A DNA stretch of 55,519 bases from a virus. Lineage: Duplodnaviria; Caudoviricetes. The notes under the pieces are model-generated. The model made no database searches. It was not told the DNA's origin and saw only the letters and a program-made list of their open reading frames with translations. The stretch's first letter is position 1; each line of letters starts with the position of its first letter. Shown piece by piece: positions 27,093 to 50,585 of this stretch. The stretch is taken from positions 1 to 55,519 of IMG/VR virus record IMGVR_UViG_3300010401_000041; one strand, 5' to 3'. The position numbers and the translations under genes are program-made.

Positions 27093-27722
27093 ATGTGGAT
27101 TAATTTTTTTTCTAAAATATATCTCGTTAATTTAGCCAAGCGGCGCGATAGATTATTTGAAACCGCCGAACACCTAGAGAAATACGAAATCCCCTTTTCT
27201 TTATTTACAGCGATAGAAAAGCCGGACGGTGCAGAAGGATTGAGAGACACCATGAACCTCATATTTGATGAGGCAATTGAAAATAATTACCCTAATATAC
27301 TAGTACTAGAAGACGATTGTGAGTTTATAAAAGAAAAAATCTGGGTTGACGAGACAATGAATGGTGTAGTAGAACAACTACCAGAAAATTATCTTTTATG
27401 TTATTTGGGAGGACAGGCAACCGGCGGCTATAGTGGCTTCTATTCCGGCAATTTGCTACCTGTTACTAAATATTTTGCAACTCACGCAGTCATGTACTCA
27501 TTACAAGGGATAAAAGAAATAAAAGCAAGAAATCTAGGTTACCCAATTGATAACTGGCTTGTAGATAATATTCAAACACAAGGGAGATGTTATGGAATTC
27601 ACCCGTTATTAGCAAGCCAACGGGCTGGATATTCTGACATAGGGAAAGCGGAAATAAATTGGTTCCCGTTCATAGTCCCAAGACACGAGCAAAAAATAAA
27701 CGAGCTTAATGCAAGACAATAG
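27093..27722 (+). CDS. Glycosyltransferase family 25
   Basis: IYLVNLAKRRDR, F.AI, ILVLEDD, THA and PID motifs. Confidence 0.88.
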   Translation: MWINFFSKIYLVNLAKRRDRLFETAEHLEKYEIPFSLFTAIEKPDGAEGLRDTMNLIFDEAIENNYPNILVLEDDCEFIKEKIWVDETMNGVVEQLPENYLLCYLGGQATGGYSGFYSGNLLPVTKYFATHAVMYSLQGIKEIKARNLGYPIDNWLVDNIQTQGRCYGIHPLLASQRAGYSDIGKAEINWFPFIVPRHEQKINELNARQ

Positions 27723-28416
27723 GAAAATAAGTATTGTAATCCCAAACTACAACCGGACTGACTTATTGATTGAGTCATTTGAAAAGGTATATTCCGACGA
27801 TAGAGTTTCTGAAATAATTGTTTCGGATGACTTTTCCGAAAAATCAGTTTATTATGAATTGATGGATTTGTTTGAGTTAATGCCAAAGGTGAAGATGTTC
27901 CGGAATCAATTCAATCAGGATTGCTACATGAATAAGCACACGGCAATGGAGTTGGCTACTAACGAATTTTGTATCTTGGCCGACTCTGATAATATTTTCG
28001 AGCCAGATTATATAGACAGGGTATATAGTTTTCCTGTATGGGATAAAAATACAATCTACGCCCCGTCATTTGCGAAACCTACGTTTAATTACACAGAATA
28101 TAATGGAGAAGTTATAACAAAAGAAAACGTTTCTTCGTTTATTGATAAGCCAATGTTTGAAACGGCTTTGAATACAAGTAATTTCTTCATAAACAGAAGT
28201 CAGTACTTAAAAACATGGGACGGGGCGGTTGATCCTGTAACATCCGACAGTATATATTTTGTCTATTGTTGGTTAAATGCTGGCAATAAATTCCATATTG
28301 TAGATGGGATGGAATATTTTCACAGAGTCCACGACGACAGCCACTATAAAATAAATGTAGCCAGAACGCCAGAAGGGTTCCATGATTCAATTTTAAATAA
28401 ATTAAGGCAGTTATGA
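27709..28416 (+). CDS. Glycosyltransferase family 2 (GT-A)
   Basis: ISIVIPNYNR, EIIVSDDFS and the DxD motif ADSD. Confidence 0.9.
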   Translation: MQDNRKISIVIPNYNRTDLLIESFEKVYSDDRVSEIIVSDDFSEKSVYYELMDLFELMPKVKMFRNQFNQDCYMNKHTAMELATNEFCILADSDNIFEPDYIDRVYSFPVWDKNTIYAPSFAKPTFNYTEYNGEVITKENVSSFIDKPMFETALNTSNFFINRSQYLKTWDGAVDPVTSDSIYFVYCWLNAGNKFHIVDGMEYFHRVHDDSHYKINVARTPEGFHDSILNKLRQL

Positions 28417-29084
28417 TTTTACCATACTCAATAACCACATTTGATGCCAATAAGTTTGACTTTGTAAAAGTAGTGTCTGAAATATTTGCGCGTCATGATT
28501 TGAAAGACTTACAACAACTTTCTGATAATAAGTATAAAGAACAATTTCAGGTAGGCATGGATTCGTCAACGGTATTTCATGAAAAATTCTACGATAAATT
28601 CAGAGAAGGTTGGAGCGAGTTGAATGATATGTATATGGATTTTATTAAGGAAGTGGTTGCCCCGGGATATGATGAAGATTTTCTGTTTCAGGCATTTCCA
28701 ACTTTCCGCGTCCACTTGCCTAAAAACGTTGCCGTTGGAGCGTTTCATAATGATGCAGAATTTCACCATCCAAAAGGAGAGGTTAATTATATAATCCCTC
28801 TAACCAATTCCAGCAAAACAGCAAGCGTATGGGTTGAATCAGAACCGGGAAAAAAAGATTTCATTGATATAATTCTACAGGTAGGAGAACTTGTAAGGTT
28901 TAATGGGAATGAATTGACACATGGGAACAAGAAAAATGAAACCTCAAATACCCGCGTGTCTATGGATTTTCGCGTATTGCCATTATCTAAATACGATGAA
29001 AGTAATTCCGGTGAATCAATAACAAGAAACACCAAATTCAAGGAAGGCGAATATTATAAAAGATTCACTCATGGTAGGAACTAG
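28413..29084 (+). CDS. 2OG-Fe(II) oxygenase, StrG-like
   Basis: PTFRVHLP, H-x-D (FHND), N.IIPLT, distal His (HGN..N) and RVSMDFR. Confidence 0.8.
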   Translation: MILPYSITTFDANKFDFVKVVSEIFARHDLKDLQQLSDNKYKEQFQVGMDSSTVFHEKFYDKFREGWSELNDMYMDFIKEVVAPGYDEDFLFQAFPTFRVHLPKNVAVGAFHNDAEFHHPKGEVNYIIPLTNSSKTASVWVESEPGKKDFIDIILQVGELVRFNGNELTHGNKKNETSNTRVSMDFRVLPLSKYDESNSGESITRNTKFKEGEYYKRFTHGRN

Positions 29085-29823
29085 ATTTTACGGTAGACTT
29101 GGCAATGTTTTTTTTCAAGCGGCTCACTGTATTGCTTTTGCGATGAGGAATGGTACAGAATTTTCAATGCCTAATAGAACCACTGATCCGTATTGGAATC
29201 CGCTGTATCTTCAACATCTAGTCGATCCGTATTATATACAAGGTAAAGAGGATGTTCTTGTTAATGAAAAATATCATGAATTTCAAGAGGTACAATTTTT
29301 AGATGAATGGAGAGGAAAACAAGTTGTATTGAACGGCTATTGGCAATCAGAAAAATATTTCAAAGATTATAGGACACTGATTTTAGACTTGTTTAATTTT
29401 CCTTGGGAGCAAAAGAAATTCGTTTCTATACATATCAGGAGAGGTGATTATTTGAGATTGCCGGATAAACACCCGCCATTTTCAGAAGAATATATGAGGT
29501 GTGCGACAAGTAGGTTTTACATGAAGGGTCATGATTGCTTCAAGGTGTTTTCTGATGATATTGCTTGGTGTAAAGAGTATTTTAAAGACCCCCACTATGC
29601 GGCAATGAAGATTGAGTTTTCAACCAATACAAGCGAGGTTGATGATATAACAGAAATGAGTCATGCGGTTGGGCATATAAATTCTAGTAGCACTTTTTCT
29701 TGGTGGGGTGCTTGGCTAAACAGAAACCCTGATAAGATTGTTTTTACACCTAAACTTTGGTTCGTAGAAAATTATCCACTCAATACAAGCGATATAATCC
29801 CAGATAGCTGGATAAAAATATAA
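29071..29823 (+). CDS. Alpha-1,2-fucosyltransferase family (GT11)
   Basis: GRLGN..FQ, GYWQSEKYF, SIHIRRGDY and STFSWWGAWL signatures. Confidence 0.92.
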   Translation: MVGTRFYGRLGNVFFQAAHCIAFAMRNGTEFSMPNRTTDPYWNPLYLQHLVDPYYIQGKEDVLVNEKYHEFQEVQFLDEWRGKQVVLNGYWQSEKYFKDYRTLILDLFNFPWEQKKFVSIHIRRGDYLRLPDKHPPFSEEYMRCATSRFYMKGHDCFKVFSDDIAWCKEYFKDPHYAAMKIEFSTNTSEVDDITEMSHAVGHINSSSTFSWWGAWLNRNPDKIVFTPKLWFVENYPLNTSDIIPDSWIKI

Positions 29824-29827
29824 AATA

Positions 29828-30373
29828 ATGGAAATAAACAGCAGAGTTCAAGTAGTAGAGTTAATGAAGCATTTCCAGTTACCATTGGTAGCGGCAGAAG
29901 TTGGAGTGGCTGAAGGAAGATTAAGTAAAGAGCTATTAAATTGGGGCATTGAAAAATTATACCTTATTGATATTTGGGAAAAAGTTCCATTTATAAAAGG
30001 ATGCGGAAGTTTTGACCAAAGCTGGCACGAAAACAATTACAAGTCAGTGTTGGAGGCCATAAAAGGGAGGGAAGATGATGTGATCCTGTTGAAAGGATTT
30101 TCCTATAAGATGGCCGAATTTATACCAGACAATAGTTTGGGAATGGTTTACATTGACGGCGATCATACTTATGAAGGAGCAAGGGCAGACATTGATTCAT
30201 ATTGGCCTAAATTGGTAAATGGAGGATTAATGCTTTTTCATGATGCAGTTAACCCGACATACGGGATAATGGATGCGATGCACAATTTCACAAAGGGGAT
30301 TGGGATTAATTTATTAGAGGAAGATGGCAATATTGCCAATAAGGGCGCGTGGATTCAAAAATCAATGTTATGA
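29828..30373 (+). CDS. Class I SAM-dependent methyltransferase (Methyltransf_24-like)
   Basis: EVGVAEG motif I; YIDGDHTYE...D...W.KL..GG...FHD. Confidence 0.88.
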   Translation: MEINSRVQVVELMKHFQLPLVAAEVGVAEGRLSKELLNWGIEKLYLIDIWEKVPFIKGCGSFDQSWHENNYKSVLEAIKGREDDVILLKGFSYKMAEFIPDNSLGMVYIDGDHTYEGARADIDSYWPKLVNGGLMLFHDAVNPTYGIMDAMHNFTKGIGINLLEEDGNIANKGAWIQKSML

Positions 30374-30969
30374 CATTGCAGAAATTAGGAGAAAAGTACG
30401 GGGTAGATAAGAAATTCCATCCAAATCTTCTTTCTCAATACGAAGACCATCTTCCTATTCACTGTAAAAAGTTTTTGGAAATAGGTTGTTTATATGGTCA
30501 CAGCGCAAAAATGTTCAGGGAATGGTACGGAGAAAAAACAGAGTTTCATTTACTTGATTTATTCAGTGTAGTGTCCGAAGGAGAGTTGGAAGGGTTTAAA
30601 ACATATAAAGGGAAGCAATGTGATTTTGAGGTACTCGAAAAACTTCCTACCGATCTGGGAGTAATTAGCGAAGACGCGTCGCACCACTCGGATGAACAAA
30701 TAATAACATTTAAAAAACTATTCAAAGACAACTTGATTAGCGGTGGGCTGTATGTCGTTGAAGATTGCTATGGTCATTTTGATCCATATTGGAGAAGAAA
30801 TATTATTGAGAAGCCAGAAGATACAATGGTTCCGCTAATGAAAACGTGGCTAAACGGAGGTGATTTGACTAGTCAATTCTTCACGCCCGAAGAAAATGTA
30901 TATTTTAAAGCAAATATAGCAGACGTTAAAATATACGACGATGTAAACGTATTTATATGGAAAAAATAA
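30370..30969 (+). CDS. Class I SAM-dependent O-methyltransferase (sugar O-methyltransferase-like)
   Basis: KYGVDK, LEIG...G.S, EDASH and GGLYVVED; ATG at 30370 coupled to the upstream stop (ATGA). Confidence 0.82.
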   Translation: MTLQKLGEKYGVDKKFHPNLLSQYEDHLPIHCKKFLEIGCLYGHSAKMFREWYGEKTEFHLLDLFSVVSEGELEGFKTYKGKQCDFEVLEKLPTDLGVISEDASHHSDEQIITFKKLFKDNLISGGLYVVEDCYGHFDPYWRRNIIEKPEDTMVPLMKTWLNGGDLTSQFFTPEENVYFKANIADVKIYDDVNVFIWKK

Positions 30970-30973
30970 CAGC

Positions 30974-32209
30974 ATGTTAGACGACAACGAAAAGCAAATG
31001 ATAATTGGCCTGTTCCCCTTTCTTTCAAAGGAGCCAGTTGTCTTTGATATTGGGAGCAACAAGGGACATTTTGCAGACGTTTTTTTGGGCGAATATAAAG
31101 ACGACTGCATGTTATTTCTTTTTGAGCCAAATAGTAAGCTATTATCTTTTACGGAAATAAAATACGAGTATCAAAAAAATATCATTTACGAAAACTTGGC
31201 TGCTTATAAGTCAGAAGGTGAAGTTTCATTTCATTTCTTTGAGAATTTCAATAATGAATTGTCCTCTATATATCCAGATGAAAATAACTGGCAGGGATTG
31301 CCAATGCAGACCAAAAATGTGGCATCCATCTCTATGGATGCTTATTGCAAAAGACATCAAATAGACATTATTGATTATTTAAAGATAGATTGCGAAGGAG
31401 GCGACGTTGATGTTCTGGAAGGATGTAAAGAATTGATGAAATCTGGCAGTATTAAAGTTATTCAAATAGAATATTCCGATCATTACAAAAGAGCAGGGAA
31501 ATCAATGGCAGATGTATTTGATCTTGCCAAAGAAAGTGGATATACTGTATATAATTACAGGATGGGAAACTACTGGAAGATTGAGGATAATTGGTCGTCA
31601 ATGGCGACCGATAATTATATTCTCACCAAGGAAGAAATTCACAACTATTGTAAACCGGGATGGAACAATGAATTTATAATTAATACCTCTGAATTGCCGA
31701 GAGTTGACCTATGTTTGGAAATTGGAGTAATGGAAGGCATGACGACAAAATATATCTGCCAAAACCTATTAAGTGAAGGAGGACGCGTTATAGCGGTCGA
31801 TCCGTTGTTGGATCACTATGTTGAAGGCGATACCGAACACTCGTATTTCAAAGGCCAATATCCTAGATTCATAAGAAACACAAGAGGACTGCCAGTTGAA
31901 TTAAAACGCGGCAAAAGTCAGGACGAATTGCCTAAGTTAAACGCATTGAGATTTGATTTTATTTACATTGACGGCGATCATAGGCATGATGCAGTTTACC
32001 ATGATGCGGTATGGTCGTTTGCGATTTGTAAAAATGGAGGGATTATACTGATAGATGACTATGAATGGCGCGAAGAAACGAAAGCTGGCATTGATAAGTT
32101 TTTGGCCGAATTCGGATCATCTCTTCAGGTTTTAATTAAAGGGTATCAGGTATTAATACAGAAGATACATAATCAATACAACGAAATCACTTTTGATTAC
32201 TATAAATAA
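30974..32209 (+). CDS. Two-domain methyltransferase (FkbM family + Methyltransf_24)
   Basis: N-terminal FDIGSNKG, FEP and LKIDCEGGD; C-terminal LEIGVMEG, AVDP, FIYIDGDH and GGIILIDDY. Confidence 0.88.
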   Translation: MLDDNEKQMIIGLFPFLSKEPVVFDIGSNKGHFADVFLGEYKDDCMLFLFEPNSKLLSFTEIKYEYQKNIIYENLAAYKSEGEVSFHFFENFNNELSSIYPDENNWQGLPMQTKNVASISMDAYCKRHQIDIIDYLKIDCEGGDVDVLEGCKELMKSGSIKVIQIEYSDHYKRAGKSMADVFDLAKESGYTVYNYRMGNYWKIEDNWSSMATDNYILTKEEIHNYCKPGWNNEFIINTSELPRVDLCLEIGVMEGMTTKYICQNLLSEGGRVIAVDPLLDHYVEGDTEHSYFKGQYPRFIRNTRGLPVELKRGKSQDELPKLNALRFDFIYIDGDHRHDAVYHDAVWSFAICKNGGIILIDDYEWREETKAGIDKFLAEFGSSLQVLIKGYQVLIQKIHNQYNEITFDYYK

Positions 32210-32216
32210 ATTATCT

Positions 32217-32843
32217 ATGATGATAGATTTTGATTACTTATTCGACAAATACAACATAAAACCTAACGGGGTTTTACACTTAGGGGCAAACGAAGGGCAG
32301 GAGGCGGAAGATTATCAGAAACGAGGGATTGAAAATGTCATTTGGGTAGAAGCCAATGGTCATGTTTTCAAAAAACTGGAAAATCATGTAAAAGACATTC
32401 CCGGCAGCATTTGCATTCAGGCCTGCGTTTCGGATAGATATTCAGAAACTTTCTTTAATATATCAAATAATGATAGCCAATCCAGCAGCATTATGGAATT
32501 AGGACATCATTCGGTTATTCACCCGGAAGTACATTATGTAGATAAGATACCAATTACCACACATCGGATAGATGAATTACTTAAAGATTTCGATTTTGAA
32601 GGTGATTGGTTTTTAAATGCCGACCTGCAAGGTGCAGAGTTGTTAGCATTAAAAGGGATGGGGGAATTGCTAGATAAATTTAAATGGTGCTATTTAGAAG
32701 TAAATAAAAAAGAAACGTATAAAGGTTGTCCAGATATTGACGACGTAGATGTCTTTTTATTACAAAGAGGATTCGAGCGAGTCGAAACAGGCGAATGGGT
32801 TGCTGATACTTGGACTGATGCTCTTTATTTAAAAGTAAAATAA
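32217..32843 (+). CDS. FkbM family methyltransferase
   Basis: LHLGANEGQE, WVEAN, SSSI and LNADLQGAEL..LKG...YLEV motifs. Confidence 0.88.
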   Translation: MMIDFDYLFDKYNIKPNGVLHLGANEGQEAEDYQKRGIENVIWVEANGHVFKKLENHVKDIPGSICIQACVSDRYSETFFNISNNDSQSSSIMELGHHSVIHPEVHYVDKIPITTHRIDELLKDFDFEGDWFLNADLQGAELLALKGMGELLDKFKWCYLEVNKKETYKGCPDIDDVDVFLLQRGFERVETGEWVADTWTDALYLKVK

Positions 32844-33709
32844 TGTTTGACCTTTTGCCACATATAAACGTCGCCTACCCGCCAAATAATGAAATAATAT
32901 TTGAAGAATGGTTCCGGGAGGTATATAGAGGTTGTAAAACCGACAGGGGATTACTGCCAATTAACTTTACTTCTTATTGGGTAAATAACGATTATGGTAA
33001 CAATGAAGCTGCCAAAAAATATCTTCAGGAATTTGTAGACGGACTGGATAGGAATAAAAAGTATTTCTGCATTGTTCAATATGACGACGGAGTATTAATA
33101 GACTTTAAAGATTTGGATGTAGTGCAGTTTAATATGTCAAAAAAGGTTGGGATTGAAATTCCTCTTTTATGTCAGCCGCATCCGTATAAGTTTGATGGAG
33201 AAAAAAAATATTTAGCTTCATTTGTTGGTAGTAGGACGCATCCTATAAGAAATGAACTAGAAAAACTAAAAGGCAAAGAAGGGTATCATATTTCTTTTGA
33301 ACCGCATGAGATTGAAGATTATTGTAGAATAATTCACGAATCATATTTCGTTCTTTGCCCGCGCGGATATGGGGCATCTAGTTTCCGCATTTGCGAAAGT
33401 TTGCAGTATGGTGCAATTCCGGTTTATTTATCCGATGAGTTTATAGAGCCGTTTGGCGTGCCGTTTAATTATTACGGTGTAAGAGTAGATGACGGTAATA
33501 TACATAAACTAGAAGATTGGCTCAATCCAGATAATAGAAATGACGGGTATCTCCATAAGAACAAACAAATATTTTATGAAGAGATGTTCACTTACGAAGG
33601 TTGTAGTAAACAAATAATAAAGAATCTTGAAACTGAATATCGTACACGGCAGGACTCCATCTCGTTTTCAGCCAATGGTAGAGGAACTAAAGCGGCAGCA
33701 GATTTCTGA
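32843..33709 (+). CDS. Exostosin-like glycosyltransferase (GT47)
   Basis: ASFVGS.THPIR and FVLCPRGYGASSFRICESLQYGAIPVYLSD. Confidence 0.85.
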   Translation: MFDLLPHINVAYPPNNEIIFEEWFREVYRGCKTDRGLLPINFTSYWVNNDYGNNEAAKKYLQEFVDGLDRNKKYFCIVQYDDGVLIDFKDLDVVQFNMSKKVGIEIPLLCQPHPYKFDGEKKYLASFVGSRTHPIRNELEKLKGKEGYHISFEPHEIEDYCRIIHESYFVLCPRGYGASSFRICESLQYGAIPVYLSDEFIEPFGVPFNYYGVRVDDGNIHKLEDWLNPDNRNDGYLHKNKQIFYEEMFTYEGCSKQIIKNLETEYRTRQDSISFSANGRGTKAAADF

Positions 33710-41280: not shown

Positions 41281-41293
41281 CTCGTTAAAAAAA

Positions 41294-41539
41294 ATGGATA
41301 TTATACAAACGGTCGTAGGCGAAATAGGAGGCCCAATACCCGGACAGATGACTTATATAAATGATAAATTAAAAGGAGCAGTTGTCCAGTTTTTAATAGT
41401 AGATAATGTTCCAGAAAATTGTTTAGACCCAGACCCGGATTTTTTTAATAATCCCATAAAGGGAGAGATAAGAAGAAAAAATCAATGGGACTTAGGAAAC
41501 AAATTGATCGTTGTCTATTCACCAAATTGCAGTTGCTAA
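41294..41539 (+). CDS. Small putative structural protein
   Basis: 81 aa; resembles the C-domain of the preceding gene in character. Confidence 0.55.
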   Translation: MDIIQTVVGEIGGPIPGQMTYINDKLKGAVVQFLIVDNVPENCLDPDPDFFNNPIKGEIRRKNQWDLGNKLIVVYSPNCSC

Positions 41540-41547
41540 AAAATATC

Positions 41548-44500
41548 ATGAAACGAATACTGTTTATATTTTCTTTTTTGATTTGTGCGGTTACGTGCTT
41601 CTCTCAAACTATTCAAACACTTGGTGCGCCCGGAACAAATGTAGTAAGCAGGGGGATGTTGACGGCGGACACTGCATTAGGATTGAGAACAAACTATATT
41701 GATACTATAAATGCCAATAGAGGAAGCTATTTAAAAAATAATCCCGGCGCAATAATAAGAACTGGTAACGCTGTTTGGATAAGAGATTCACTAGCAAAAT
41801 CGTGGGTGCAGATGGGATCAGGTGGAACGATTGGAAATACAATTTATTCAGGAGATGGGAACATCGTAAGCGATAGAACATTAAGCGGATCAAATCTCTT
41901 TTCCCTAAATTTAGATAGTCTTTCAGAATTTAATGTTACTGCTCATAACTTTGCAGGAACTCGTTCAGGGTACATTCAAATAGCCCCCAACCTTTCAGGA
42001 TTCAGCACCCAAGATGAATTTGGCTACGAGAACAACATCTTTGGAGATGGAAGAAACGGAATCATAATTCAATCCGATAGTTCCAATGCTCACGGAATGG
42101 CTCTCACATTAGATGCCGATAGTTTTAAAATAGTTTATCAAAACCGTGACCCAAATATCTTATCCTCTCTCGGAGATTACAAACTTTTAGCCATTAGCCC
42201 TACAGGGGGATTGGTCAATTATACGGGAAGTGCAGGTGCGCCATTCATTGATTCATTACAGTTGGATTCTCTAATGAAGCGATTTGATTTAGCTGGGTGG
42301 GGAGATTCTTTTACAAGGGGTTTTGTCGATTTATTGGGTGGATATCCTGAATGGTTGGCAAATCAGGCCGGTAGGCAAATGACAAATAATGGGATCGGTG
42401 GAGCAACAAGTCAAGTCATTAGAACTGCATTTTTAGCAGATAGATCACAATGGTTAAGGGGTACAATTATCTGGTCGGGCTACAATAATCGCGATCAAGT
42501 TGCGGTTGTTACGGCTGATACCAAACAAATGGTGGATTCATTAATTGCTGCCGGTAATACCCGTTACCTTATTCTTACAATCCCTAATGGCCCCGGTGAT
42601 TCTCTTGTTGGTTCAACTTCTTACAACTATTACGATTCGATTATAAAAATACAGAACAATCTTACTGCACTATATCCGGGACACGTTGGAGATGTAAGAG
42701 CTTTTTTAGTTTCAAAATATAATCCCGCGTTACCAGCCGACGTTACAGCACACAATCAGCACCAAATTCCTCCTTCGTTAAGGAATGTTGATCTTGTTCA
42801 TTTAACCACACAAGGATATTATTATGTTGCAAGATTTATAGATAGTTTATACGGGAATATTGTTTATAATAGACAATATAGCAATTACGTCATAGATGCC
42901 AATAGAATCATAAACCTAACACAAGGGCTTTTGCCAAATATAGGGATTCAGGATTCAGGGTCTTTCTATATAGGAAATCTTCCTTTCGCTTATCGCCCCA
43001 ATAGATATACTTCTCCAAACACAATGATATTTGGTGATGGTGGTCGATTACTTACAACAGGACAAGATGAAACAGTATTGGGATATGGTGCAGGATTGGC
43101 ATTAACAAGTGGGAACGCTAACCATTTATTTGGGTATAACGTAGGAAAACTTCTTACTACTGGGTATTCAAATACTGCAATGGGAAGTAGTTCAATGACC
43201 AATAGTGCAACTGCGTTTGAGAATACGGCATTTGGTTTTCAGACGATGCTAGGTACAGGTGCATTCGCACGAAATGTTGCAGTTGGAGTATCAGCATTAA
43301 GAACAAACACAGATGGCACAGATAACACAGCAATTGGCGCGTCTGCTCTCGGTGCGAATGATGGAGGCAGTAACAATGCAGTGGTAGGACGGGCAGCAGC
43401 ATCGGCAGGAACGCCCGTAAATAGAACTTCTATTATTGGTACTGAAGGTTGTTATCCTTGTGCAGTCGCAGATAATAGTGGAATAGGCTATCAGGTGTTA
43501 CGTAATAACGTAGGCGGCACACGCAATTCAATAATGGGAGAGCAAGGATTTTTCAGCAATGAATCTGGCAACGATAATTCATCTGTGGGCTATAGAGCAG
43601 GGTTTGGTACAAATGGATTCAATACTTCATCATATAGGAATACTGCAATTGGAACATGGGCTATTACTCAAATAAGAAGTCAGGCAAATGATAACATAGC
43701 ATTGGGTTACAAAGCCATCATGGATTCTATTACAGGGTCAAACAACATTGCAATCTGTGATAGTTGTGATTTGCAATCCCGCACCGGAAGTGATCAAGGA
43801 ACAATTGGTAATGTTATATTTATCAATGGAGGTATGGGGCATGGAACAACGGTAGGAATAGGTAGAGTAAGTATAGGAACCGCAACAGCAAATGCTTCGG
43901 CCTTATTAGATATTTCAAGTACAACAAAAGGTATATTATGGTCTCGAATGACTAATGTTCAAATGAATGCAATAAGTAGTCCAGCTACTGGTTTGCACGT
44001 ATATAATACCGATTCTTTACAGGATTATCAATATAATGGAAGTGCATGGGTTAAGGTAGGTAGTACTGTAGCAGCAGGAAGCGTATCAAGTGTTTCAGGA
44101 ACGGCTAATAGAATTACTTCAAGCGGAGGCACTACTCCGGTTATTGATATTGCAGCAACATACGTTGGACAAACTTCTTTAACAACACTTGGAACCGTTA
44201 CGATCGGAACATTAAGTACGGGCGCGGTAATCGGTGGTGTAACAATGACACTTGGTAGCGATGCAGCCAATGATATTTATTATCGAAACGGATCAGGGGT
44301 TTTAACAAGATTGGCTAATGGAACTACTGGACAGTTTTTAGCAGCTACCACAGGTTCTGCGCCATCTTGGTCAACACCTTCTGCTGGCGGTAGCCCCGGA
44401 GGAAGTGATACATATGTTCAATTCAATAGGAATGGTGTATTTGCCGGTGTTGATTCATTAACGTGGACAGCAAACGGGCTAGATACTAAATACAGGTATC

Positions 44501-45924
44501 GTATAAATGGCGTTCAGGTTGCATGGCTTCCTAATCAAACTAGTTTTCCAAGTGTAATGTATATAGGCAATGGTACAGGTTCTGCATTAGCTGCCGGTGC
44601 TACCCTTAATACAGCAGTAGGGTTAGGTGGAGCTTTGGGTGCTAATACAACAGGTGCAAGCGTTACAGCAATAGGATCAAGAGCTTTTCAAGCTAATACA
44701 ACAGGAAGTAATAATACAGGTGTTGGAGATGCTCCCGGTTTTAGCAATACAACTGGTGCTGGTAATACCTACTTAGGTAAATCGGCAGGACAAAGTAATC
44801 AAACAGCTTCAAATATAGTTGCTGTTGGCGCATCTGCATTTTTAAATAATACTGCTGCGCAAGGGATAGCAATTGGTGCAACAGCGGGTAATGGAAATAC
44901 ATCCGGCCCGGATAACGTATTAATTGGATTTCAGGCAGCATTTCAAAATTCAACAGGAGGGGGCAATACAATAGTTGGAACACAGGCAGCGGTTGGTGTT
45001 TCTTCTAATAACTTTTCAAACAATACTTACATTGGGTATAAAGTAGCAAACGCAAATACAACAGGTAGCGGAAATATTGCCATAGGGGATAGTGCAGCCC
45101 GTACATTGACAACCGCGATACGATCTATTACTATCGGAACCAACTTAACAGAAAATGGCAACTTCTCTTTGAATATAGGAGGGGCTATTTTTGGAACTGG
45201 GATGACCGCAACGGGAACAAGCGCAGCTGGTAATATAGGTATTGGAATAACAACACCACGTGAAGTATTAGACGTTAACGGCATCTTAAGTATAAGAACA
45301 GTTAATGCAGGTGTTTCAGTTGATAGTGTATTGATATATGAAGATGGCCGCGTAAAATCTATTGCAGGAAATTTGCTTGGTGCTACCGCTTCAACTGGAT
45401 TAACTAATACAACAGGTACATGGACTGCTGATCTTTCTACAGGCGTTTCCGGTGGTCAAACATTAAGGGGCGGTACTGCTGCAAATAATCAATTAATTGT
45501 AAGAGGTAGTATTGCCGCTTCAGGAAGCACAGTAACAAATCCAGACGTTACATTTGTAGTTGGAGATGGTGCAGGAACGACAACTTTCCAACTTAGGAAA
45601 GACGCTTCTATTTTACATTATGGGTCAATGTGGACTCCGATTAGGACTGTCACTACAACAACTACAAGTACGGTGACGGATTATACTATATTAGTAGATG
45701 CAAGTGGTGGCGCGGTTACTATTAATCTTATTGCAGCAGCATCTTTCTTCAATACAAGTACGGGGGGCGTATTAATAATTAAGAAAATAGATGCCTCTGC
45801 AAATACTGTAACTATCGATGCAAATGGGTCTGAAACAATTGATGGGGCAACAACGCAAACGCTATTGACACAGTGGAGTAGTTATACAATTCAAGATAAT
45901 GGTACTGCTTGGTTCGTCCTTTAA
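41548..45924 (+). CDS. Tail fibre/spike-like protein with a signal peptide, SGNH hydrolase domain and beta-solenoid repeats
   Basis: ATG 41548 gives MKRILFIFSFLICAVTCFSQ. SGNH blocks: GDSFT, GIGG, GYNN, DLVH. Two arrays of N-T-A-x-G repeats, fibre motifs SALLDISSTTKG and IGIGITTP..LDVNG, and C-terminal IKKID...VTIDANGSETIDG. Confidence 0.8.
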   Translation: MKRILFIFSFLICAVTCFSQTIQTLGAPGTNVVSRGMLTADTALGLRTNYIDTINANRGSYLKNNPGAIIRTGNAVWIRDSLAKSWVQMGSGGTIGNTIYSGDGNIVSDRTLSGSNLFSLNLDSLSEFNVTAHNFAGTRSGYIQIAPNLSGFSTQDEFGYENNIFGDGRNGIIIQSDSSNAHGMALTLDADSFKIVYQNRDPNILSSLGDYKLLAISPTGGLVNYTGSAGAPFIDSLQLDSLMKRFDLAGWGDSFTRGFVDLLGGYPEWLANQAGRQMTNNGIGGATSQVIRTAFLADRSQWLRGTIIWSGYNNRDQVAVVTADTKQMVDSLIAAGNTRYLILTIPNGPGDSLVGSTSYNYYDSIIKIQNNLTALYPGHVGDVRAFLVSKYNPALPADVTAHNQHQIPPSLRNVDLVHLTTQGYYYVARFIDSLYGNIVYNRQYSNYVIDANRIINLTQGLLPNIGIQDSGSFYIGNLPFAYRPNRYTSPNTMIFGDGGRLLTTGQDETVLGYGAGLALTSGNANHLFGYNVGKLLTTGYSNTAMGSSSMTNSATAFENTAFGFQTMLGTGAFARNVAVGVSALRTNTDGTDNTAIGASALGANDGGSNNAVVGRAAASAGTPVNRTSIIGTEGCYPCAVADNSGIGYQVLRNNVGGTRNSIMGEQGFFSNESGNDNSSVGYRAGFGTNGFNTSSYRNTAIGTWAITQIRSQANDNIALGYKAIMDSITGSNNIAICDSCDLQSRTGSDQGTIGNVIFINGGMGHGTTVGIGRVSIGTATANASALLDISSTTKGILWSRMTNVQMNAISSPATGLHVYNTDSLQDYQYNGSAWVKVGSTVAAGSVSSVSGTANRITSSGGTTPVIDIAATYVGQTSLTTLGTVTIGTLSTGAVIGGVTMTLGSDAANDIYYRNGSGVLTRLANGTTGQFLAATTGSAPSWSTPSAGGSPGGSDTYVQFNRNGVFAGVDSLTWTANGLDTKYRYRINGVQVAWLPNQTSFPSVMYIGNGTGSALAAGATLNTAVGLGGALGANTTGASVTAIGSRAFQANTTGSNNTGVGDAPGFSNTTGAGNTYLGKSAGQSNQTASNIVAVGASAFLNNTAAQGIAIGATAGNGNTSGPDNVLIGFQAAFQNSTGGGNTIVGTQAAVGVSSNNFSNNTYIGYKVANANTTGSGNIAIGDSAARTLTTAIRSITIGTNLTENGNFSLNIGGAIFGTGMTATGTSAAGNIGIGITTPREVLDVNGILSIRTVNAGVSVDSVLIYEDGRVKSIAGNLLGATASTGLTNTTGTWTADLSTGVSGGQTLRGGTAANNQLIVRGSIAASGSTVTNPDVTFVVGDGAGTTTFQLRKDASILHYGSMWTPIRTVTTTTTSTVTDYTILVDASGGAVTINLIAAASFFNTSTGGVLIIKKIDASANTVTIDANGSETIDGATTQTLLTQWSSYTIQDNGTAWFVL

Positions 45925-45935
45925 AATATAAAACA

Positions 45936-46370
45936 ATGAAAACATCGCATTGGGTTGTACTTATTATTGGAGTTGCAATTTTATCAACTATTGCTGGTAA
46001 ATCTATTCCATCTCATTTACCTATTCGCGTTTTCAGGCATACAGGGGAAGTTGATTTAGGAGGCACAAGAATTTATGCAGATACTATAACGCCCACCACT
46101 GGCAACGGATTCTCTATTGATATTTCACCGGCAGGATTTTCATCTATCCCGCGCGTTCAGATAACCCCAATGAGAAACACAAATGTCGTTACAAGTGTCC
46201 CCAATATTGCTATCAAATCAGTTTCCACTACGACCATTGTGGTAAATATCACAGAGGGGAATTCGGCGACTGTTAACATCTTGGGGAATATAGTAACACT
46301 GGGATCGCCAACAATTTTCACCCCAACGCCCGGAACTATTTTACTAAATGTTCAAGCAGTCGGAAATTAA
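45936..46370 (+). CDS. Fibre-associated beta protein with an N-terminal signal/TM segment
   Basis: MKTSHWVVLIIGVAILSTIAG; GFSSIP.VQIT...SVSTTTI..N pattern like gp53/H-type-lectin fibre modules. Confidence 0.6.
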   Translation: MKTSHWVVLIIGVAILSTIAGKSIPSHLPIRVFRHTGEVDLGGTRIYADTITPTTGNGFSIDISPAGFSSIPRVQITPMRNTNVVTSVPNIAIKSVSTTTIVVNITEGNSATVNILGNIVTLGSPTIFTPTPGTILLNVQAVGN

Positions 46371-46393: not shown

Positions 46394-47464
46394 ATGGCTA
46401 TTCTCTTCGCTCCAAAAAAACTATCAGACTTCAGATTAACAGGACATCAATATTGTTGCCCTGATTCTATTACCGATGGAACGTTGCCAGATGGTACACC
46501 TTGTGTGAAATATTTGCTGCGTCCTACAGATGCAAGGGTAAGTAGTTCTATAAGGGCTGAAGCGGAATATCCGGCCGGGGTGGATGTGGGCGAAGAAGAT
46601 GAAAGATGGTACGGGTTGACCTTCTTCTTTGAGCAATATGACAAAGACCCAACACCGGAAAGTATTTTTCAATTCCATGACAACGACGGCTCAACCCCTC
46701 CCGGCTCAATCCAAGTGAATAACGGAAGGCTTTTGTACATGAGAGCCACTAAGAAAGAAGGCAACACCCCCTATGATATTGGAGCATTAGAATTGAATAA
46801 AAACGTGAACATTGTCATTCATGTTAAATGGAGTATATCGGCAATTGGCATTGTAGAAGTATGGAAAGACGGAGTTAAAGTTGTATCTAAACAAAACGTT
46901 GTAACTAATTGTAGCAAAGGCAATTACGGTAAATGTGGAATTAATAAATGGAGTTGGGATAAAGATACTCTGTGGTCAACAATTAAAACACCGCGCAGAT
47001 ATTCTATTGGTAATCTTAAAATCGGTGATGCAAAAAGTTCTTACAACGAAGTTGCTCCCGGTGCTGTTGTAGTAGTTCCACCAGTTGTATTGCCAAATCA
47101 AGCACCTATTGCAAATGCAGGGGCAGATCAAACAATAAAACTCCCCTTGAATGATATTGTATTGGATGGAAGCGGTTCAACAGATAAAGACGGCAAGATT
47201 GTTTCCTATAGGTGGTCTGCGCAAAATGGCGTGACACTAGGAACGTCTGCATCTCTTCAATTGAATGATCTCACAGAGGGGAATTATAAATACATCCTAA
47301 CAGTTACAGATGACAAAGGCGCAACAGGAACCGACGATGTTTCAGTAACAGTATTAGCAGCCGATCCATTACCAGCACCAAAGATTATCTCTACCATTAC
47401 CACAGTTGAAATTGATTTCGATAATGGCGCAAAAGAGTTTTGGAAGAACGGAGTTAAACAATAA
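46394..47464 (+). CDS. Polysaccharide lyase-like jelly-roll protein with a PKD domain
   Basis: IRAE, WYG..F, IFQFH, G.VEVWKDG and Y.K.GI.K motifs; C-terminal NQAPIANAGADQ...LDGSGSTDKDG.I.SY.W...LTVTDDKGA PKD domain. Confidence 0.78.
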   Translation: MAILFAPKKLSDFRLTGHQYCCPDSITDGTLPDGTPCVKYLLRPTDARVSSSIRAEAEYPAGVDVGEEDERWYGLTFFFEQYDKDPTPESIFQFHDNDGSTPPGSIQVNNGRLLYMRATKKEGNTPYDIGALELNKNVNIVIHVKWSISAIGIVEVWKDGVKVVSKQNVVTNCSKGNYGKCGINKWSWDKDTLWSTIKTPRRYSIGNLKIGDAKSSYNEVAPGAVVVVPPVVLPNQAPIANAGADQTIKLPLNDIVLDGSGSTDKDGKIVSYRWSAQNGVTLGTSASLQLNDLTEGNYKYILTVTDDKGATGTDDVSVTVLAADPLPAPKIISTITTVEIDFDNGAKEFWKNGVKQ

Positions 47465-47485: not shown

Positions 47486-47881
47486 ATGCAAGAAGACTTT
47501 ATACTCATCCTATGCGGTATTGCGGGAGTGTTGTTTCAATGCTTATTGAAATTAAACGGACTGCTGAATGATGCCAGAACCGCAAACATAAACTTCAGTT
47601 GGAAGAAAGACTACGTAAAAAGAGATTTTGTCTCTATCATGATTTCGTTCCTTTCTGTTGCTATCTGGTATTTAATCTTTCGTGAAGTATCTGCAAAGTC
47701 TGAAGCAGTCGCCAATCTTAAAAGAGTTTCATTCGTAACAATGGGAGGCATTGGCTCATTTGTTATTCAGTACTTCATGGGAGGTGCAAAGAATTGGGTA
47801 CGACAAATTATTGACCATAAAACAGATTTGGCAGATGGCAAGAATCCTAAAACACCCTTGCCGCCTGACTTTAAACCATAA
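47486..47881 (+). CDS. Putative holin (about 3 TM segments)
   Basis: Three hydrophobic segments and a charged C-tail; first gene of the lysis region. Confidence 0.55.
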   Translation: MQEDFILILCGIAGVLFQCLLKLNGLLNDARTANINFSWKKDYVKRDFVSIMISFLSVAIWYLIFREVSAKSEAVANLKRVSFVTMGGIGSFVIQYFMGGAKNWVRQIIDHKTDLADGKNPKTPLPPDFKP

Positions 47882-48422: not shown

Positions 48423-48772
48423 ACGAACGTATGCGTCAAGCGTTAATAAATGTACTTTTGTTGGATGAAACCAAACGGCGGCTAACAATGGCAGAAATTA
48501 CGGCAAAGGCTATATTCTTTTTCGGATTGTATTTACCCATGTACGTGTACACTATGGTCATTACTTTTGCCGACGTTAGATTTTGGATTCTTACCGCTTT
48601 CTCTATAATTGTTGGCTCATTCAGGTTTGTTAGATGGCTTCGCAGGGATGACAGAAAGAATGAAGCCTTACTAATAGATAATGAAATGAAACGATTATCA
48701 CAACGTGAAAAGGAAATAGAGTTAATGGAAAGAGAAGTTTCAATCATGGAGAGGCGCGCACGAATTGTATGA
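48395..48772 (+). CDS. Holin-like two-TM protein with a coiled-coil C-tail
   Basis: Two hydrophobic segments then a charged helix; just before the spanin; start uncertain. Confidence 0.55.
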   Translation: MAIKTIEDINERMRQALINVLLLDETKRRLTMAEITAKAIFFFGLYLPMYVYTMVITFADVRFWILTAFSIIVGSFRFVRWLRRDDRKNEALLIDNEMKRLSQREKEIELMEREVSIMERRARIV

Positions 48773-49359
48773 ATAGATCATTAATTATACTTTTAGCCTT
48801 CCTTACTTCCTGTCATGTAAGTAAGAACATCCAAACAGAAAAGGTAAACGTTGACAGCATTGTAAACACAGTAAGTAAGAAGTGGCAAAAGTCAATAGAC
48901 AGTCTGAATGTAGAATATAACAGGCATTTGTCAGAGCTTACAAATATCGGTGCAACATTTACGCCTTGTCCCCCTGCTGTGGTTCCTGATTCAGTAGTAA
49001 AGATGTTAGATAGTGCTGCACAATGGAGAATAATGCTATGGCAAAGAGATAATAAGATTCAGGCATTGAACACGAAACTAAAAGTAAATGCAGACGGATC
49101 ATTTGAAACAACACAACAAGTCACATCATTACAGATAGCAAAGAGCAGAACCGAAGACGAGAACATTGCCCTTCGTCATTCAAACACTGTATTGGCCGCT
49201 CAATTAGATAGCGCACAAACTGAATTAAAGAAAGAGCAGGAAAGCAAGTCTAAAGTAGTTGAGAAGAAAGTAATTCCTATCTGGGTATATGTGGTAATGG
49301 TGGTATTAGCTATTGGTGGATATGGAGTATCTTGGTGGCGGCATCATGGGAACGCATAA
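48769..49359 (+). CDS. Unimolecular spanin-like lipoprotein
   Basis: Lipobox LTS|C at residue 15 plus a C-terminal TM segment (IPIWVYVVMVVLAIGGYGV): the u-spanin topology. Confidence 0.7.
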   Translation: MNRSLIILLAFLTSCHVSKNIQTEKVNVDSIVNTVSKKWQKSIDSLNVEYNRHLSELTNIGATFTPCPPAVVPDSVVKMLDSAAQWRIMLWQRDNKIQALNTKLKVNADGSFETTQQVTSLQIAKSRTEDENIALRHSNTVLAAQLDSAQTELKKEQESKSKVVEKKVIPIWVYVVMVVLAIGGYGVSWWRHHGNA

Positions 49360-50069: not shown

Positions 50070-50585
50070 ATGAAAGACTCAATCAGTATTATCCGGGTGA
50101 ATAGCCTTCATCCAAAAATCAGGCAAGAGGTTCATGATCTCATTGAAAAGGTAGAAGCAAAGATGCCGGGATGTGCAGTTAGAATAGTACAGGGATATAG
50201 AACATTCGCTGAACAAGACGCACTCTATGCACAAGGAAGAACAACAAAAGGGAATGTAGTGACAAATAGTAAAGCGGGACAGAGCTACCATAATTTTGGT
50301 CTGGCCATAGATTTCGCGCTGCTTTATGATAAAGACAATAATGGCACATACGAAACAATGTCGTGGGACTTGTTGAAAGATTTCGATAAAGACGGGGAAG
50401 CCGATTGGATGGAAGTAGTAGATACGTTTGAGGATGCTCATTATGATTGGGGCGGTCATTGGTCGTCATTTAAAGACAATCCGCATCTGGAAAAACGTTT
50501 TGGTCTTCACTGGAAACAATTACTTGCAAAGTATAACGCAAAAGATTTCATTCCCGGAACTAATTATATAAACATTGGTATGTAA
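50070..50585 (+). CDS. Endolysin, M15 family L-Ala-D-Glu peptidase
   Basis: GYRT..EQ..LYAQGRT, SYHNFGLAID, WGG.W and D.PHLE zinc-peptidase motifs. Confidence 0.92.
   Translation: MKDSISIIRVNSLHPKIRQEVHDLIEKVEAKMPGCAVRIVQGYRTFAEQDALYAQGRTTKGNVVTNSKAGQSYHNFGLAIDFALLYDKDNNGTYETMSWDLLKDFDKDGEADWMEVVDTFEDAHYDWGGHWSSFKDNPHLEKRFGLHWKQLLAKYNAKDFIPGTNYINIGM

Follow-up and report, generated by a model that had tools for sequence, protein, structure and literature searches.

Tail fibres and tailspikes that carry an esterase domain of the SGNH/GDSL type are the closest described counterparts of the fibre reported here. In the tail spike structures 9sij/9sim, the tail fibre of Escherichia phage Ptacy1537 and the tail spike of Erwinia phage Gungnir39, a homologous esterase domain lies inside the fibre or spike, as in the present case, and phages of E. 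coli, Erwinia, Klebsiella, Salmonella, Arthrobacter and Rhodococcus have SGNH domains as part of their tail fibres, spikes or minor tail proteins. Judged from the enzyme family, the role of the present domain may be likened to that of SGNH tailspikes, deacylation of surface polysaccharide at adsorption. The proteins of Ptacy1537 and Gungnir39, whose two N-termini make up the comparison, have no signal peptide and contain O-glycosylation sequons (D-(S/T)-(A/I/L/V/M/T)) at the expected frequency; the fibre described here is unlike both in that its esterase stands near the N-terminus, behind a predicted cleavable signal.

Virion proteins with Sec signals that are assembled outside the cytoplasm are well known from the Ff filamentous phages (pIII and pVIII). 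These phages, however, are extruded through the envelope and make no cytoplasmic capsid, whereas the phage in our window (the whole 55,519-nt stretch of DNA analysed) has capsid and tail genes of the ordinary tailed-phage kind, with a portal, an SU10-type capsid protein and a terminase. We know of no tailed phage in which export of a virion protein has been described. Spanins and exported lysis proteins are the accepted tailed-phage users of host export signals, and the window has a sequon-rich protein of this layout (48769-49359); as a class, such proteins serve in lysis and have no part in the virion or in receptor binding. In mycobacteriophages, exposed virion proteins bear glycans, which phage glycosyltransferases add to Ser/Thr-rich tails in the cytoplasm. 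The window resembles these phages in having glycosyltransferase genes among its structural genes (island 27093-33709), and differs from them in that the sites in the fibre conform to the motif of periplasmic O-glycosylation by the host and stand in a protein with a signal peptide.

Certain prophage proteins of Porphyromonas gingivalis are likewise of the Sec/SPI type with Gln at +1, which the consulted sections of PMC10367356 read as an adaptation to Bacteroidota secretion; the genes, of function not known, are treated there as host-modifying (the example is of 144 aa), and the word stem 'glycosylat' is absent from the text of that paper. The present gene is unlike these in encoding a 1458-aa fibre homologue inside a structural gene string. 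Neither tail fibres with a signal nor the use of Bacteroidota O-glycosylation by phages was found to be described in the literature consulted, including parts of PMC6199706, PMC5723332 and PMC12386605.

Gene context of the fibre

The fibre gene lies within the structural module, after portal, capsid and neck-region genes and before the lysis genes. The ORF preceding it stops at 41539, so that the gap to the fibre ATG at 41548 is 8 nt; the next gene follows after 11 nt, with no terminator-like site between. The fibre ORF itself occupies 41485-45924 (+), and its 1458-aa product, counted from ATG 41548, begins MKRILFIFSFLICAVTCFSQTIQTL. Two in-frame upstream starts, ATG 41485 and TTG 41527, extend the n-region only, and the signal is retained either way. 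Other features of the window that bear on the argument are as follows.

27093..33709, + strand: glycosyltransferase/methyltransferase island between terminase and portal (Pfam/PHROG matches)
45936..46370, + strand: 144-aa protein whose N-terminus is hydrophobic, as in a signal or signal anchor (sequence, 15-member family)
46394..47464, + strand: polysaccharide lyase and PKD-domain protein (Pfam Polysacc_lyase, 4.9e-21; K319L-like PKD, 1e-21)
47486..47881, + strand: holin-like membrane protein, first of the lysis cassette (hydrophobic segments)
48769..49359, + strand: lipoprotein (L-T-S-C lipobox) with a C-terminal TM helix (sequence, lipobox/TM scan)
50070..50585, + strand: endolysin, M15 peptidase, no signal peptide (Pfam Peptidase_M15_4, 1.3e-14; PHROG endolysin, 1.1e-33)

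An earlier note on this DNA had described the gene after the fibre as also starting in a signal-like manner. Its 144-aa product begins MKTSHWVVLIIGVAILSTIAGKS, and a hydrophobic N-terminal segment is indeed conserved in kind in all 15 members of its family; it may be cleaved off as a signal or stay as a signal anchor. Gln is found at a +1 position in 0/15 members, and D49-T50 is invariant and followed in most members by an aliphatic residue. An identical copy of this small protein is encoded on a 60.9-kb contig. The plural "fibre-like proteins" was nevertheless an overstatement, as the product appears to be a small exported or membrane-anchored protein with no match in Pfam or PHROG. The lyase-PKD protein has no signal peptide, is neutral in sequons (2 vs 1.6 expected) and is a cytoplasmic candidate for a virion enzyme. 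The holin-like protein is 41% identical to the product of the gene directly 3' of the signal-bearing SGNH gene in another phage contig, L003. The lipoprotein at 48769-49359, by its layout and position a putative unimolecular spanin, starts a sequon at 5 of its 8 Asp (5 vs 0.5 expected; 0/2000 and 0/3000 shuffles) and provides an internal control for sequon excess in exported proteins. A tRNA scan of the window returned none.

The island encodes GT25, GT2, GT11 and GT47-like enzymes, two FkbM domains, two Methyltransf_24 domains and one further methyltransferase matched in PHROG only. The idea that it might remodel the lipid-linked glycan gained one hint: the otherwise unrelated phage contig L006 has in common with the window only the signal-bearing fibre, GT2, GT11 and one methyltransferase. 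Here n=2, and a common host explains this equally well.

Signal peptide and sequon excess

The Bacteroidetes Q-rule (Gln at +1 after the cut by signal peptidase I) and the O-glycosylation motif are described in the consulted parts of PMC5837995, PMC10653852 and PMC12871550. As marks of a Sec/SPI signal obeying this rule we took an uncharged hydrophobic h-region of about 10-15 residues, a basic n-region and a length of about 18-25 residues; all signal-peptide calls were made with our own hydrophobicity and -3/-1 rule script, by sequence reading and by conservation. In what follows, a slash marks the predicted cut.

41548..41604, + strand: signal peptide, residues 1-19 (sequence, rule-based scan, equivalent N-termini in relatives)

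The basic n-region of the fibre, MKR, is followed by ILFIFSFLICAVTCF, which was flagged by the script and provides an uncharged h-region of 15 residues; the c-region is C-F-S, in which positions -3 and -1 are small, and Gln (Gln20) stands at +1, so that a 19-residue signal of the Sec/SPI type ends CFS/Q. The earlier identification of a Bacteroidota signal peptide with Gln at +1, which was to fall if homologues lacked signal peptides, is upheld by sequence, rule scan and conservation: the full-length homologues P0002, P0003 and P0004 all carry a signal ending small-x-small/Q (3/3), its layout being kept although the signal sequence itself diverges. In the seven relatives with such an ending (these three and L003, L005, L009 and L016), the cut sites read ATA/Q, GFG/Q, SFA/Q, AAA/Q, TQA/Q, VIG/Q and VFG/Q. 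Signals are also present in related proteins of three other phage contigs, one sipho-like, one myo-like and one untyped, which brings the phage contexts available for comparison to four in all; in L003 (sipho-like) and L009 (myo-like) it is the SGNH-bearing last gene of the tail module that carries the signal. A signal-like start, judged by eye, is seen at 17 of the 18 related loci with a readable N-terminus, three more loci being cut or broken and so outside this count. More widely, 85 of 151 representative homologues of shaft and tip have a small-x-small/Q signal and 66 have none. Fibres of the related podoviruses phi38:1 and elemoF start MARIKNT/MARIKTY, with no signal, and the signal is absent from fibres of the Flavobacteriia phage isolates PTm1, immuto and pT24.

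Megablast of 34220-46370 against GenBank phages gave no match, viral-contig scans with the N-terminal 481 aa of the fibre, with the tip-domain alignment or with the alignment of the 144-aa small protein returned no relative, and the N-terminus of P0043, which bears a signal, matched among phage isolates by tblastn only a cyanophage and two uncultured megaphage records, with no Bacteroidota phage. Other readings of the N-terminus and of the export route were rejected: a lipoprotein, as the Cys residues before the cut vary among homologues; a dual product from an internal start, as no Met after the signal is conserved (the first internal Met is residue 37 in the fibre, ~82 in P0003 and ~270 in P0004); and a T9SS cargo, as the T9SS C-terminal domain family was found in 0/40 homologues scanned.

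According to the consulted parts of PMC12871550, sites in noncytoplasmic proteins are occupied almost fully, engineered motifs become glycosylated, and Leu is the commonest third residue of the sequon. The fibre contains 67 Asp and 15 D[ST][AILVMT] sequons, 9 of them DSL, and the 1048-aa protein of the window contains 2, exactly as counted by hand in the earlier note. Shuffles of the fibre's composition give 6.1 +/- 2.3 sequons, and the observed 15 were reached in 0/2000 shuffles and, in a second run, in 3/5000. Control motifs are flat (D[ST][not aliphatic], 8 vs 8.1 expected; E[ST][aliphatic], 2 vs 1.2), and the reversed motif occurs 2 times vs 6.1 expected; a slight surplus of N[ST][aliphatic] (18 vs 11.5) we ascribe to the NT(A/I) turns in the repeats of the shaft. 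The sequon excess falls in residues 21-470 (10 vs 1.8 expected), shaft and tip being neutral (5 vs about 4).

In a composition-corrected test across ORFs and homologues, as the earlier note had proposed, the excess survives, recurs in homologues, in part at other positions, and tracks the signal: it is linked to export signals across the 151 homologues and the ORFs of the window. Seven export-class ORFs of the window hold 23 sequons vs 7.9 expected, and the other 55 are neutral (43 vs 38.5). The 85 homologues with signal and Gln hold 583 vs 415.8 expected (1.40x), with 18/85 individually enriched at p<0.01 and 10/85 sequon-poor, so that enrichment is not universal and, given the common ancestry of close homologues, not independent among them; the 66 homologues without signal hold 610 vs 600.1 (1.02x), with 2/66 enriched. 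The L003 protein has the signal without the excess (2 vs 4.3). The L009 protein is enriched (13 vs 3.9) and has only one sequon position in common with the fibre of the window, which points to selection for sites as such. SGNH relatives without signal are neutral (L018, 2 vs 1.7; Ptacy1537, 3 vs 2.9; Gungnir39, 3 vs 2.5), as are the signal-less Flavobacteriia phage fibres (PTm1, 5/4.4 and 5/3.1; immuto, 2/2.5 and 4/3.7; pT24, 9/12.0). A need of the esterase fold for these residues was rejected, since the aligned positions in signal-less relatives are without sequons.

Domain architecture of the fibre

From its N-terminus the fibre consists of the signal peptide, a conserved N-module, an SGNH esterase, a fibre shaft and a tip of the receptor-binding protein type.

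41605..42243, + strand: post-signal N-terminal modules, residues 20-232 (4 sequons; motif in text)
42244..42957, + strand: SGNH/GDSL-type esterase domain, residues 233-470 (alignment, profile, AF2 model)
42958..45264, + strand: fibre shaft, beta-helix-like repeats, residues 471-1239 (PHROGs, tblastn)
45265..45921, + strand: C-terminal tip domain, residues 1240-1458 (identity to relatives' tips)

The first N-module (~80 aa), with the motif Y-x-D-T-x-x-A-N ... W-x-R ... W ... G-S-G, was present in 9/152 proteins compared, all nine of which have a signal ending in /Q, and is combined with enzyme domains and tips of different kinds, much like the anchor domains of fibres. A word-based search with residues 21-135 returned the query alone, and the AF2 model of residues 1-480 (mean pLDDT 51.7) is of low confidence over the N-terminal modules and gives no fold for the putative anchor module.

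The diagnostic SGNH blocks, namely GDS with the Ser nucleophile, the block II Gly, GxN and the His of DxxH, can be followed in an alignment of 10 sequences, where G252, S254, G285, N313 and H418 are invariant and D253 nearly so; the Asp of DxxH (D415 in the fibre) is replaced in P0002 and P0003. The profile of these 10 sequences matches the 'Tail spike protein' 9sij/9sim (E 5e-14) and the SGNH esterase 9otv (5.6e-7) in the PDB, and structure comparison of the AF2 model, over the region modelled with confidence (about residues 270-430), gave GDSL/SGNH esterases and sialate O-acetylesterase as matches (E 4e-6, TM up to 0.75). Searched as a whole, the 1458-aa fibre matched 0 Pfam families at E<=0.01 and, with phmmer, nothing among PDB sequences. 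Among signal-bearing homologues of shaft and tip, Lipase_GDSL_2 passes in P0146 (38.4 vs 32.9 bits) and falls just under in P0018 (30.8), and ESM Atlas look-alikes, all <0.9 and to be taken as leads only, are mostly viral clusters, one with Lipase_GDSL_2. We read the esterase domain from its sequence as a divergent SGNH/GDSL member; it holds 6 sequons vs 0.87 expected.

Homology to known virion fibres is seen in the shaft, which matches the virion structural protein phrog_23837 (2.4e-35), the tail spike phrog_4636 (2e-19) and, by tblastn, tail fibres of Pelagibacter, Roseobacter and Prochlorococcus phages; the fibre also matches phrog_6002, and 51049 proteins of the representative library match at E<=0.001. 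With those of P0003, P0018 and P0022 the tip shares 60-68% identity, and its last ~80-100 residues are 40-46% identical to proteins of Thermocrinis, Microcystis and Halorubrum viruses annotated as T7 tail fiber, baseplate wedge or hypothetical. Cys residues of the fibre are at 13, 17, 635, 638 (CYPC), 737 and 740 (CDSC), both CxxC pairs being in the shaft. The suggestion that disulfides could form there is weak: CYPC is common to 3/4 family members, and CDSC is unique to the fibre.

Probable export and glycosylation, and possible place on the virion

From the signal peptide, together with the link between signals and sequons, we infer a noncytoplasmic location of the fibre. These sequence features lend good support to export and to exposure to host O-glycosylation, both of which are probable, and glycosylation, once export is granted, would be still more to be expected. 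By means of the 19-residue signal peptide the chain would cross the inner membrane, and signal peptidase I would cut before Gln20, where the host's glutaminyl cyclase could make pyroglutamate, and the host's general O-glycosylation would add glycans to the D-S/T-aliphatic sites of the N-modules and SGNH domain. The trimeric fibre would wait in the periplasm, separate from fibreless particles, until the holin opened the inner membrane and the two met, either ahead of the opening of wall and outer membrane by endolysin and spanin-like protein or along with it. On the virion, the esterase would remove acyl (probably acetyl) groups from surface polysaccharide and the tip would bind the receptor.

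This reading, a receptor-binding fibre of the tailspike-esterase type made as a Sec precursor and joining virions after export, is the one we favour, tentatively. It follows the earlier interpretation, in which the conserved signal with Gln at +1 and the sequon excess stand and the plural "proteins" does not. Given export, the chances that the fibre joins virions are evenly balanced. The signal-less tail-docking N-domain of related podoviruses is absent from the fibre, its place being taken by a signal and an unrelated module, and the short interval around lysis in which fibres would have to find particles counts against joining. In favour of this reading, the window contains no fibre with the MARIKNT-type N-terminus of related podoviruses; against it, the source contig, from an uncultured virus, is estimated to be 79% complete, so that a conventional fibre could sit in the missing part, and the lyase-PKD protein nearby is a candidate virion enzyme made in the cytoplasm.

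It is also quite conceivable, if somewhat short of probable, that the fibre-derived protein is exported and glycosylated and never found on virions, its esterase and binding domains modifying or masking the phage's receptor polysaccharide from the periplasm. Such a protein would exclude superinfecting phages and prevent progeny from being trapped on debris or, in a variant, would be freed at lysis as a soluble enzyme conditioning neighbouring cells. All the evidence for export fits equally, the gene adjoins the lysis cassette, and T5 Llp sets a precedent for a receptor-blocking protein in a lytic phage. The slot between tail and lysis genes is a usual place for accessory genes, and in L003 and L009 the signal-bearing gene comes after other fibre candidates and may therefore be accessory there. 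The P. gingivalis prophage Q-rule proteins, too, are read as host-envelope modifiers in the consulted sections of PMC10367356, and are small (e.g. 144 aa). Some 1000 aa of shaft and receptor-binding-type tip are, however, of no evident use to a periplasmic enzyme, and the Peptidase_S74 fibre-chaperone domain is kept in 12/36 signal-bearing homologues scanned. An exclusion factor derived from a fibre should moreover adjoin its parent gene, whose product has no signal, yet the fibre protein is encoded only once in the window; the gene stands within the late structural string, at gaps of 8 and 11 nt.

Rather improbable is a fibre that is not exported at all, its N-terminus being unused as a Sec signal through early folding or trimerisation, or through a downstream start, with assembly in the cytoplasm and another cause of the sequon excess. 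To our knowledge, all characterised tailed-phage fibres are assembled in the cytoplasm, those of the related isolates phi38:1, elemoF, PTm1, immuto and pT24 have no signal, the signal call is rule-based only, and the many sequons in AF2-predicted helices of the esterase domain make a structural cause conceivable. Yet 8/8 Bacteroidota-style relatives retain Gln at the predicted +1, and small residues at -3/-1, amid sequence that is not conserved, which is hard to explain unless cleavage occurs; homologues have no conserved Met downstream of the signal, the SGNH fold without signal shows no sequon excess, and basic N-terminal residues favour translocation of the protein body (the positive-inside rule).

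Tailed-phage morphogenesis is taught as purely cytoplasmic, and export of a receptor-binding protein, if true, would add an unlooked-for step to it. Phage host range would be tied to the secretion and glycosylation machinery of the host, and phages of a phylum that is prominent in gut, soil and sea could carry host glycans on the virion surface, with a bearing on phage stability, immune recognition and adsorption. Should the protein act off the virion, it would nonetheless be an exported enzyme of fibre descent that modifies the receptor, a type for which these Bacteroidota-type phages offer no described example. The signal-bearing class is not rare (85/151 representative homologues), and annotation pipelines and host-range predictors that take every fibre homologue as a cytoplasmic part of the virion would mislabel it. 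It is tempting, if doubtful, to see here a class of some size among the phages and prophages of Bacteroidota, one whose receptor-binding fibres are Sec-routed, pyroglutamate-capped, coated with host O-glycans and attached after holin action, the glycosyltransferase/methyltransferase island perhaps retouching the lipid-linked glycan; if so, these phages would have protease-hardened fibres bearing the host's own glycan, and a two-compartment assembly for a tailed phage.

The esterase fibre and its glycosylation motifs

Starting at ATG 41548, 8 nt past the stop of the preceding gene, the fibre gene (41548-45924, +) encodes 1458 aa with the N-terminus MKRILFIFSFLICAVTCFS|QTIQTL; two in-frame starts further upstream would add only a longer basic n-region. 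The tally by hand in the earlier note proved exact for this protein, with 67 Asp, 15 copies of the Bacteroidota O-glycosylation motif D[ST][AILVMT] (sequon), 9 of them DSL, and CYPC and CDSC at residues 635-638 and 737-740, as did its figure of 2 sequons in the 1048-aa tail protein. Against composition-preserving shuffles, 15 sequons compare with 6.1 +/- 2.3 expected, a number reached in 0/2000 and 3/5000 shuffles. Only the complete motif is in excess: D[ST] with a non-aliphatic third residue occurs 8 times (8.1 expected), E[ST][aliphatic] twice (1.2 expected) and the reversed motif twice (6.1 expected). The earlier observation is confirmed, beyond chance. The excess is localised, with 10 sequons against 1.8 expected in residues 21-470 and 5 against about 4 in shaft and tip.

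Directly after the signal lies a module of ~80 aa (Y-x-D-T-x-x-A-N ... W-x-R ... W ... G-S-G), present in 9 of 152 proteins compared, all nine with a signal ending in |Q. Residues 233-470 form an SGNH esterase domain. Residues G252, S254, G285, N313 and H418 are invariant across ten esterase relatives. Their profile finds the PDB 'Tail spike protein' 9sij/9sim at E 5e-14, along with SGNH esterases. Where an AF2 model is confident, it resembles GDSL/SGNH esterases and sialate O-acetylesterases; a Pfam scan of the fibre gave no family match. The repeat shaft (residues 471-1239) has homologues among phage virion fibres and spikes. The tip, the last ~220 residues, is common to the homologues P0003, P0018 and P0022 and distantly resembles proteins of other viruses whose annotation is T7-type fibre or baseplate. 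Third-position G+C of the gene is 0.25 (0.22-0.24 in shaft and tip) versus 0.32-0.385 in other late genes, which hints at a different origin or an effect of repeat composition.

The next gene (45936-46370) had also been credited with a signal-like start. Its hydrophobic start is conserved, and there is no Gln at +1. The body of the 144-aa product is beta-rich. All 15 members keep an Asp-Thr pair, which in most of them precedes Ile or Val. The protein appears to be exported or membrane-anchored, and is possibly a fibre helper.

Signal and sequons among relatives

Signal calls rest on conservation, reading by eye and rule-based detectors. The three full-length homologues found all start basic and then hydrophobic, and their signals end in ATA|Q, GFG|Q and SFA|Q, the residues themselves being unconserved. 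The sole related viral contig found, L003, has a sipho-like gene set that includes a major tail protein and a tape-measure-like gene. It carries a 937-aa protein with a homologous esterase and the N-terminus MKKYILLLLIITGFTQA|Q, and the next gene is holin-like and 41% identical to window 47486-47881. Three of 21 more loci from metagenomes and genomes are cut or broken; a signal-like start was seen by eye in 17 of the other 18. The one without (L018) is on a phage-like contig with proteins unlike Bacteroidota ones. In the myovirus contig L009 (sheath, tape measure, baseplate hub), another of these loci, a 788-aa ORF includes MKKNIMTALMLIGCLSVIG|Q at its presumed start Met (785 aa from that Met). 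Gln also follows the predicted cut in some Verrucomicrobia genome loci, so that Gln at +1 by itself is no proof of a Bacteroidota host.

Sequon counts differ with the signal. The 7 window ORFs with a signal, lipobox or N-anchor hold 23 sequons versus 7.9 expected, and the 55 without hold 43 versus 38.5; neither class includes the multi-pass holin-like proteins or some of the short ORFs from the list of 73. Observed and expected counts are 14 and 4.3 in P0002, 16 and 5.0 in P0003, 11 and 5.0 in P0004, 10 and 1.6 in locus L005, and 13 and 3.9 in L009. Six positions, in the esterase domain or right ahead of it (residues 235-432), are common to the close clade; the L009 set is distinct, sharing one of the clade's positions, and at none of the aligned close-clade or L009 positions do distant esterase relatives have the motif. 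Signal-less relatives are at expectation (L018, 2 versus 1.7; Escherichia phage Ptacy1537 tail fibre, 3 versus 2.9; Erwinia phage Gungnir39 tail spike, 3 versus 2.5), as are the signal-less, sequon-neutral fibres of the Flavobacteriia phage isolates PTm1, immuto and pT24. Fibres of the related podoviruses phi38:1 and elemoF begin MARIKNT/MARIKTY, without a signal. The L003 protein has a signal, yet only 2 sequons versus 4.3.

A search of 1.84 billion representative proteins with fibre residues 481-1458 gave 51,049 matches at E<=0.001. Among 151 proteins, namely the best hits listed and P0004, a wider detector found a signal ending in a small residue and |Q in 85 and none such in 66, and a stricter one found 86 signal-like starts, 73 with Q; these tallies are rough, because the stricter detector visibly missed some. 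The 85 hold 583 sequons versus 415.8 (ratio 1.40; p<0.01 individually in 18/85), and the 66 hold 610 versus 600.1 (ratio 1.02; p<0.01 in 2/66). Against the reading that sequons track export, as with the L003 protein, ten of the 85 are sequon-poor, most having none where 3-6 are expected. The proteins with none seem to avoid glycosylation sites instead of being neutral; exposure to the glycosylation system would fit both enrichment and avoidance. In a Pfam scan of 40 homologues (36 signal-bearing, 4 signal-less), Peptidase_S74, a fibre intramolecular chaperone, was found in 12 of the 36, other domains were Lipase_GDSL_2, SASA esterase, K1-lyase_C and BppL_N, and a T9SS C-terminal domain was found in none of the 40. 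The zero-sequon proteins are P0016, P0021, P0042, P0079, P0087, P0108, P0137 and P0148; of the five scanned with Pfam, P0016, P0042, P0079 and P0087 carry Peptidase_S74 and P0021 does not.

Phage, host and other exported proteins

Features of the window (coordinates, strand where recorded, description)
8323-8646 (+), 9042-9383 (+), 51470-51832 (-): small proteins with lipobox, signal-like start or N-anchor
25026-27086: large terminase
27093-33709 (+): glycosyltransferase (GT)/methyltransferase island in the terminase-portal interval (GT25, GT2, GT11, GT47-like, FkbM and other methyltransferases)
34220-36673: portal
37867-39210: SU10-type capsid protein
48769-49359 (+): lipoprotein (L-T-S-C) with C-terminal TM helix, between holin-like genes and endolysin
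50070-50585: M15 endolysin
Further products: 1048-aa tail protein, large internal proteins, primase-helicase

Isolate-phage relatives of portal and terminase are distant only (about 24-33% identity), and all those named infect Flavobacterium, Cellulophaga, Tenacibaculum or Maribacter. Because of these relatives and the 38% G+C of the window, the working assumption is that the host is probably one of the Bacteroidota, likely Flavobacteriia-like. The window, an entire IMG/VR viral contig of 55,519 bases, is linear by class, with a completeness estimate of 79%. P0153, identical to the 144-aa protein, occurs on three contigs of up to 60,924 bases, and a fuller genome of this phage is probably in public data. 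The C-terminal half of 5189-5884 (-) matches Tad4, a type I Thoeris inhibitor (Pfam, E 1.6e-32); the gene is a likely anti-defence gene. A GroES-like co-chaperonin (9393-9731, +; Pfam Cpn10, E 2e-9) is encoded upstream of the tail genes, and related elemo phages also have GroES/GroEL genes.

The layout of 48769-49359 suggests a unimolecular spanin. Five of its 8 Asp begin a sequon (Ser plus aliphatic), where 0.5 are expected (0/2000 and 0/3000 shuffles), the strongest excess in the window besides the fibre. As a presumed periplasmic phage protein it provides a positive control within the window, and it looks like a spanin built for O-glycosylation. The small protein 51470-51832 has 2 sequons versus 0.2. 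Directly after the fibre region, a polysaccharide-lyase and PKD fusion (46394-47464, +), signal-less and sequon-neutral, is possibly a second glycan-degrading protein, made in the cytoplasm.

The island comprises four glycosyltransferases and several sugar-type methyltransferases. In an all-against-all BLASTP of window ORFs with ten related loci, the otherwise unrelated phage contig L006 shares only the fibre (52% identity), GT2, GT11 and one methyltransferase (34-38%), the island counterparts lying at 800-4345 (-). With two genomes, this fits a functional tie between island and fibre and a shared host equally well. PMC8698959 reports 2-O-methyl-rhamnose in the B. fragilis O-glycan and a predicted fucosyltransferase gene at the end of its locus.

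Export and destination of the fibre

The earlier note had the phage export its fibre, the host glycosylate it, and the fibre join virions only at lysis. Export is well supported by comparison. The conserved signal and the sequon pattern are together best read as Sec export of the fibre with cleavage before Gln20, which is quite likely; a fibre that is not exported is unlikely. The Q-rule and its stabilising effect are described in PMC5837995 and PMC10653852. Given export in a Bacteroidota host, several sites would very likely be glycosylated, since PMC12871550 states that motif sites in noncytoplasmic proteins are almost fully occupied; it adds that Leu is the commonest third residue and that engineered motifs get glycosylated.

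The exported fibre may then be attached to virions, a reading favoured tentatively and at somewhat under even chances. Its shaft and tip are complete, a common N-module precedes variable enzyme and tip domains, the gene lies among the late genes, where no terminator-like site separates neck genes from lysis genes, and the window holds neither a second copy nor a MARIKNT-type fibre. Against attachment stand the little time for it, the other fibre candidates of L003 and L009, the fact that 21% of the genome is missing, the adjoining cytoplasmic lyase-PKD protein and the lack of a known precedent; the literature searched, mostly without subscription journals, held no report of signal-bearing tail fibres or of phage use of Bacteroidota O-glycosylation. 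Alternatively, and almost as probably, the protein is an exported non-virion factor that modifies the receptor. PMC10367356 describes five Q-rule proteins of unknown function in P. gingivalis prophages, read as envelope modifiers, one of which has 144 aa.

Two-compartment assembly, as proposed, is plausible. The fibre itself is a tailspike-type esterase fibre bearing a predicted Sec signal and host-type glycosylation sites, and, given the share of homologues with signal and Gln and the Pfam fibre domains found among them, phage-fibre-like proteins bearing signals appear to be numerous.
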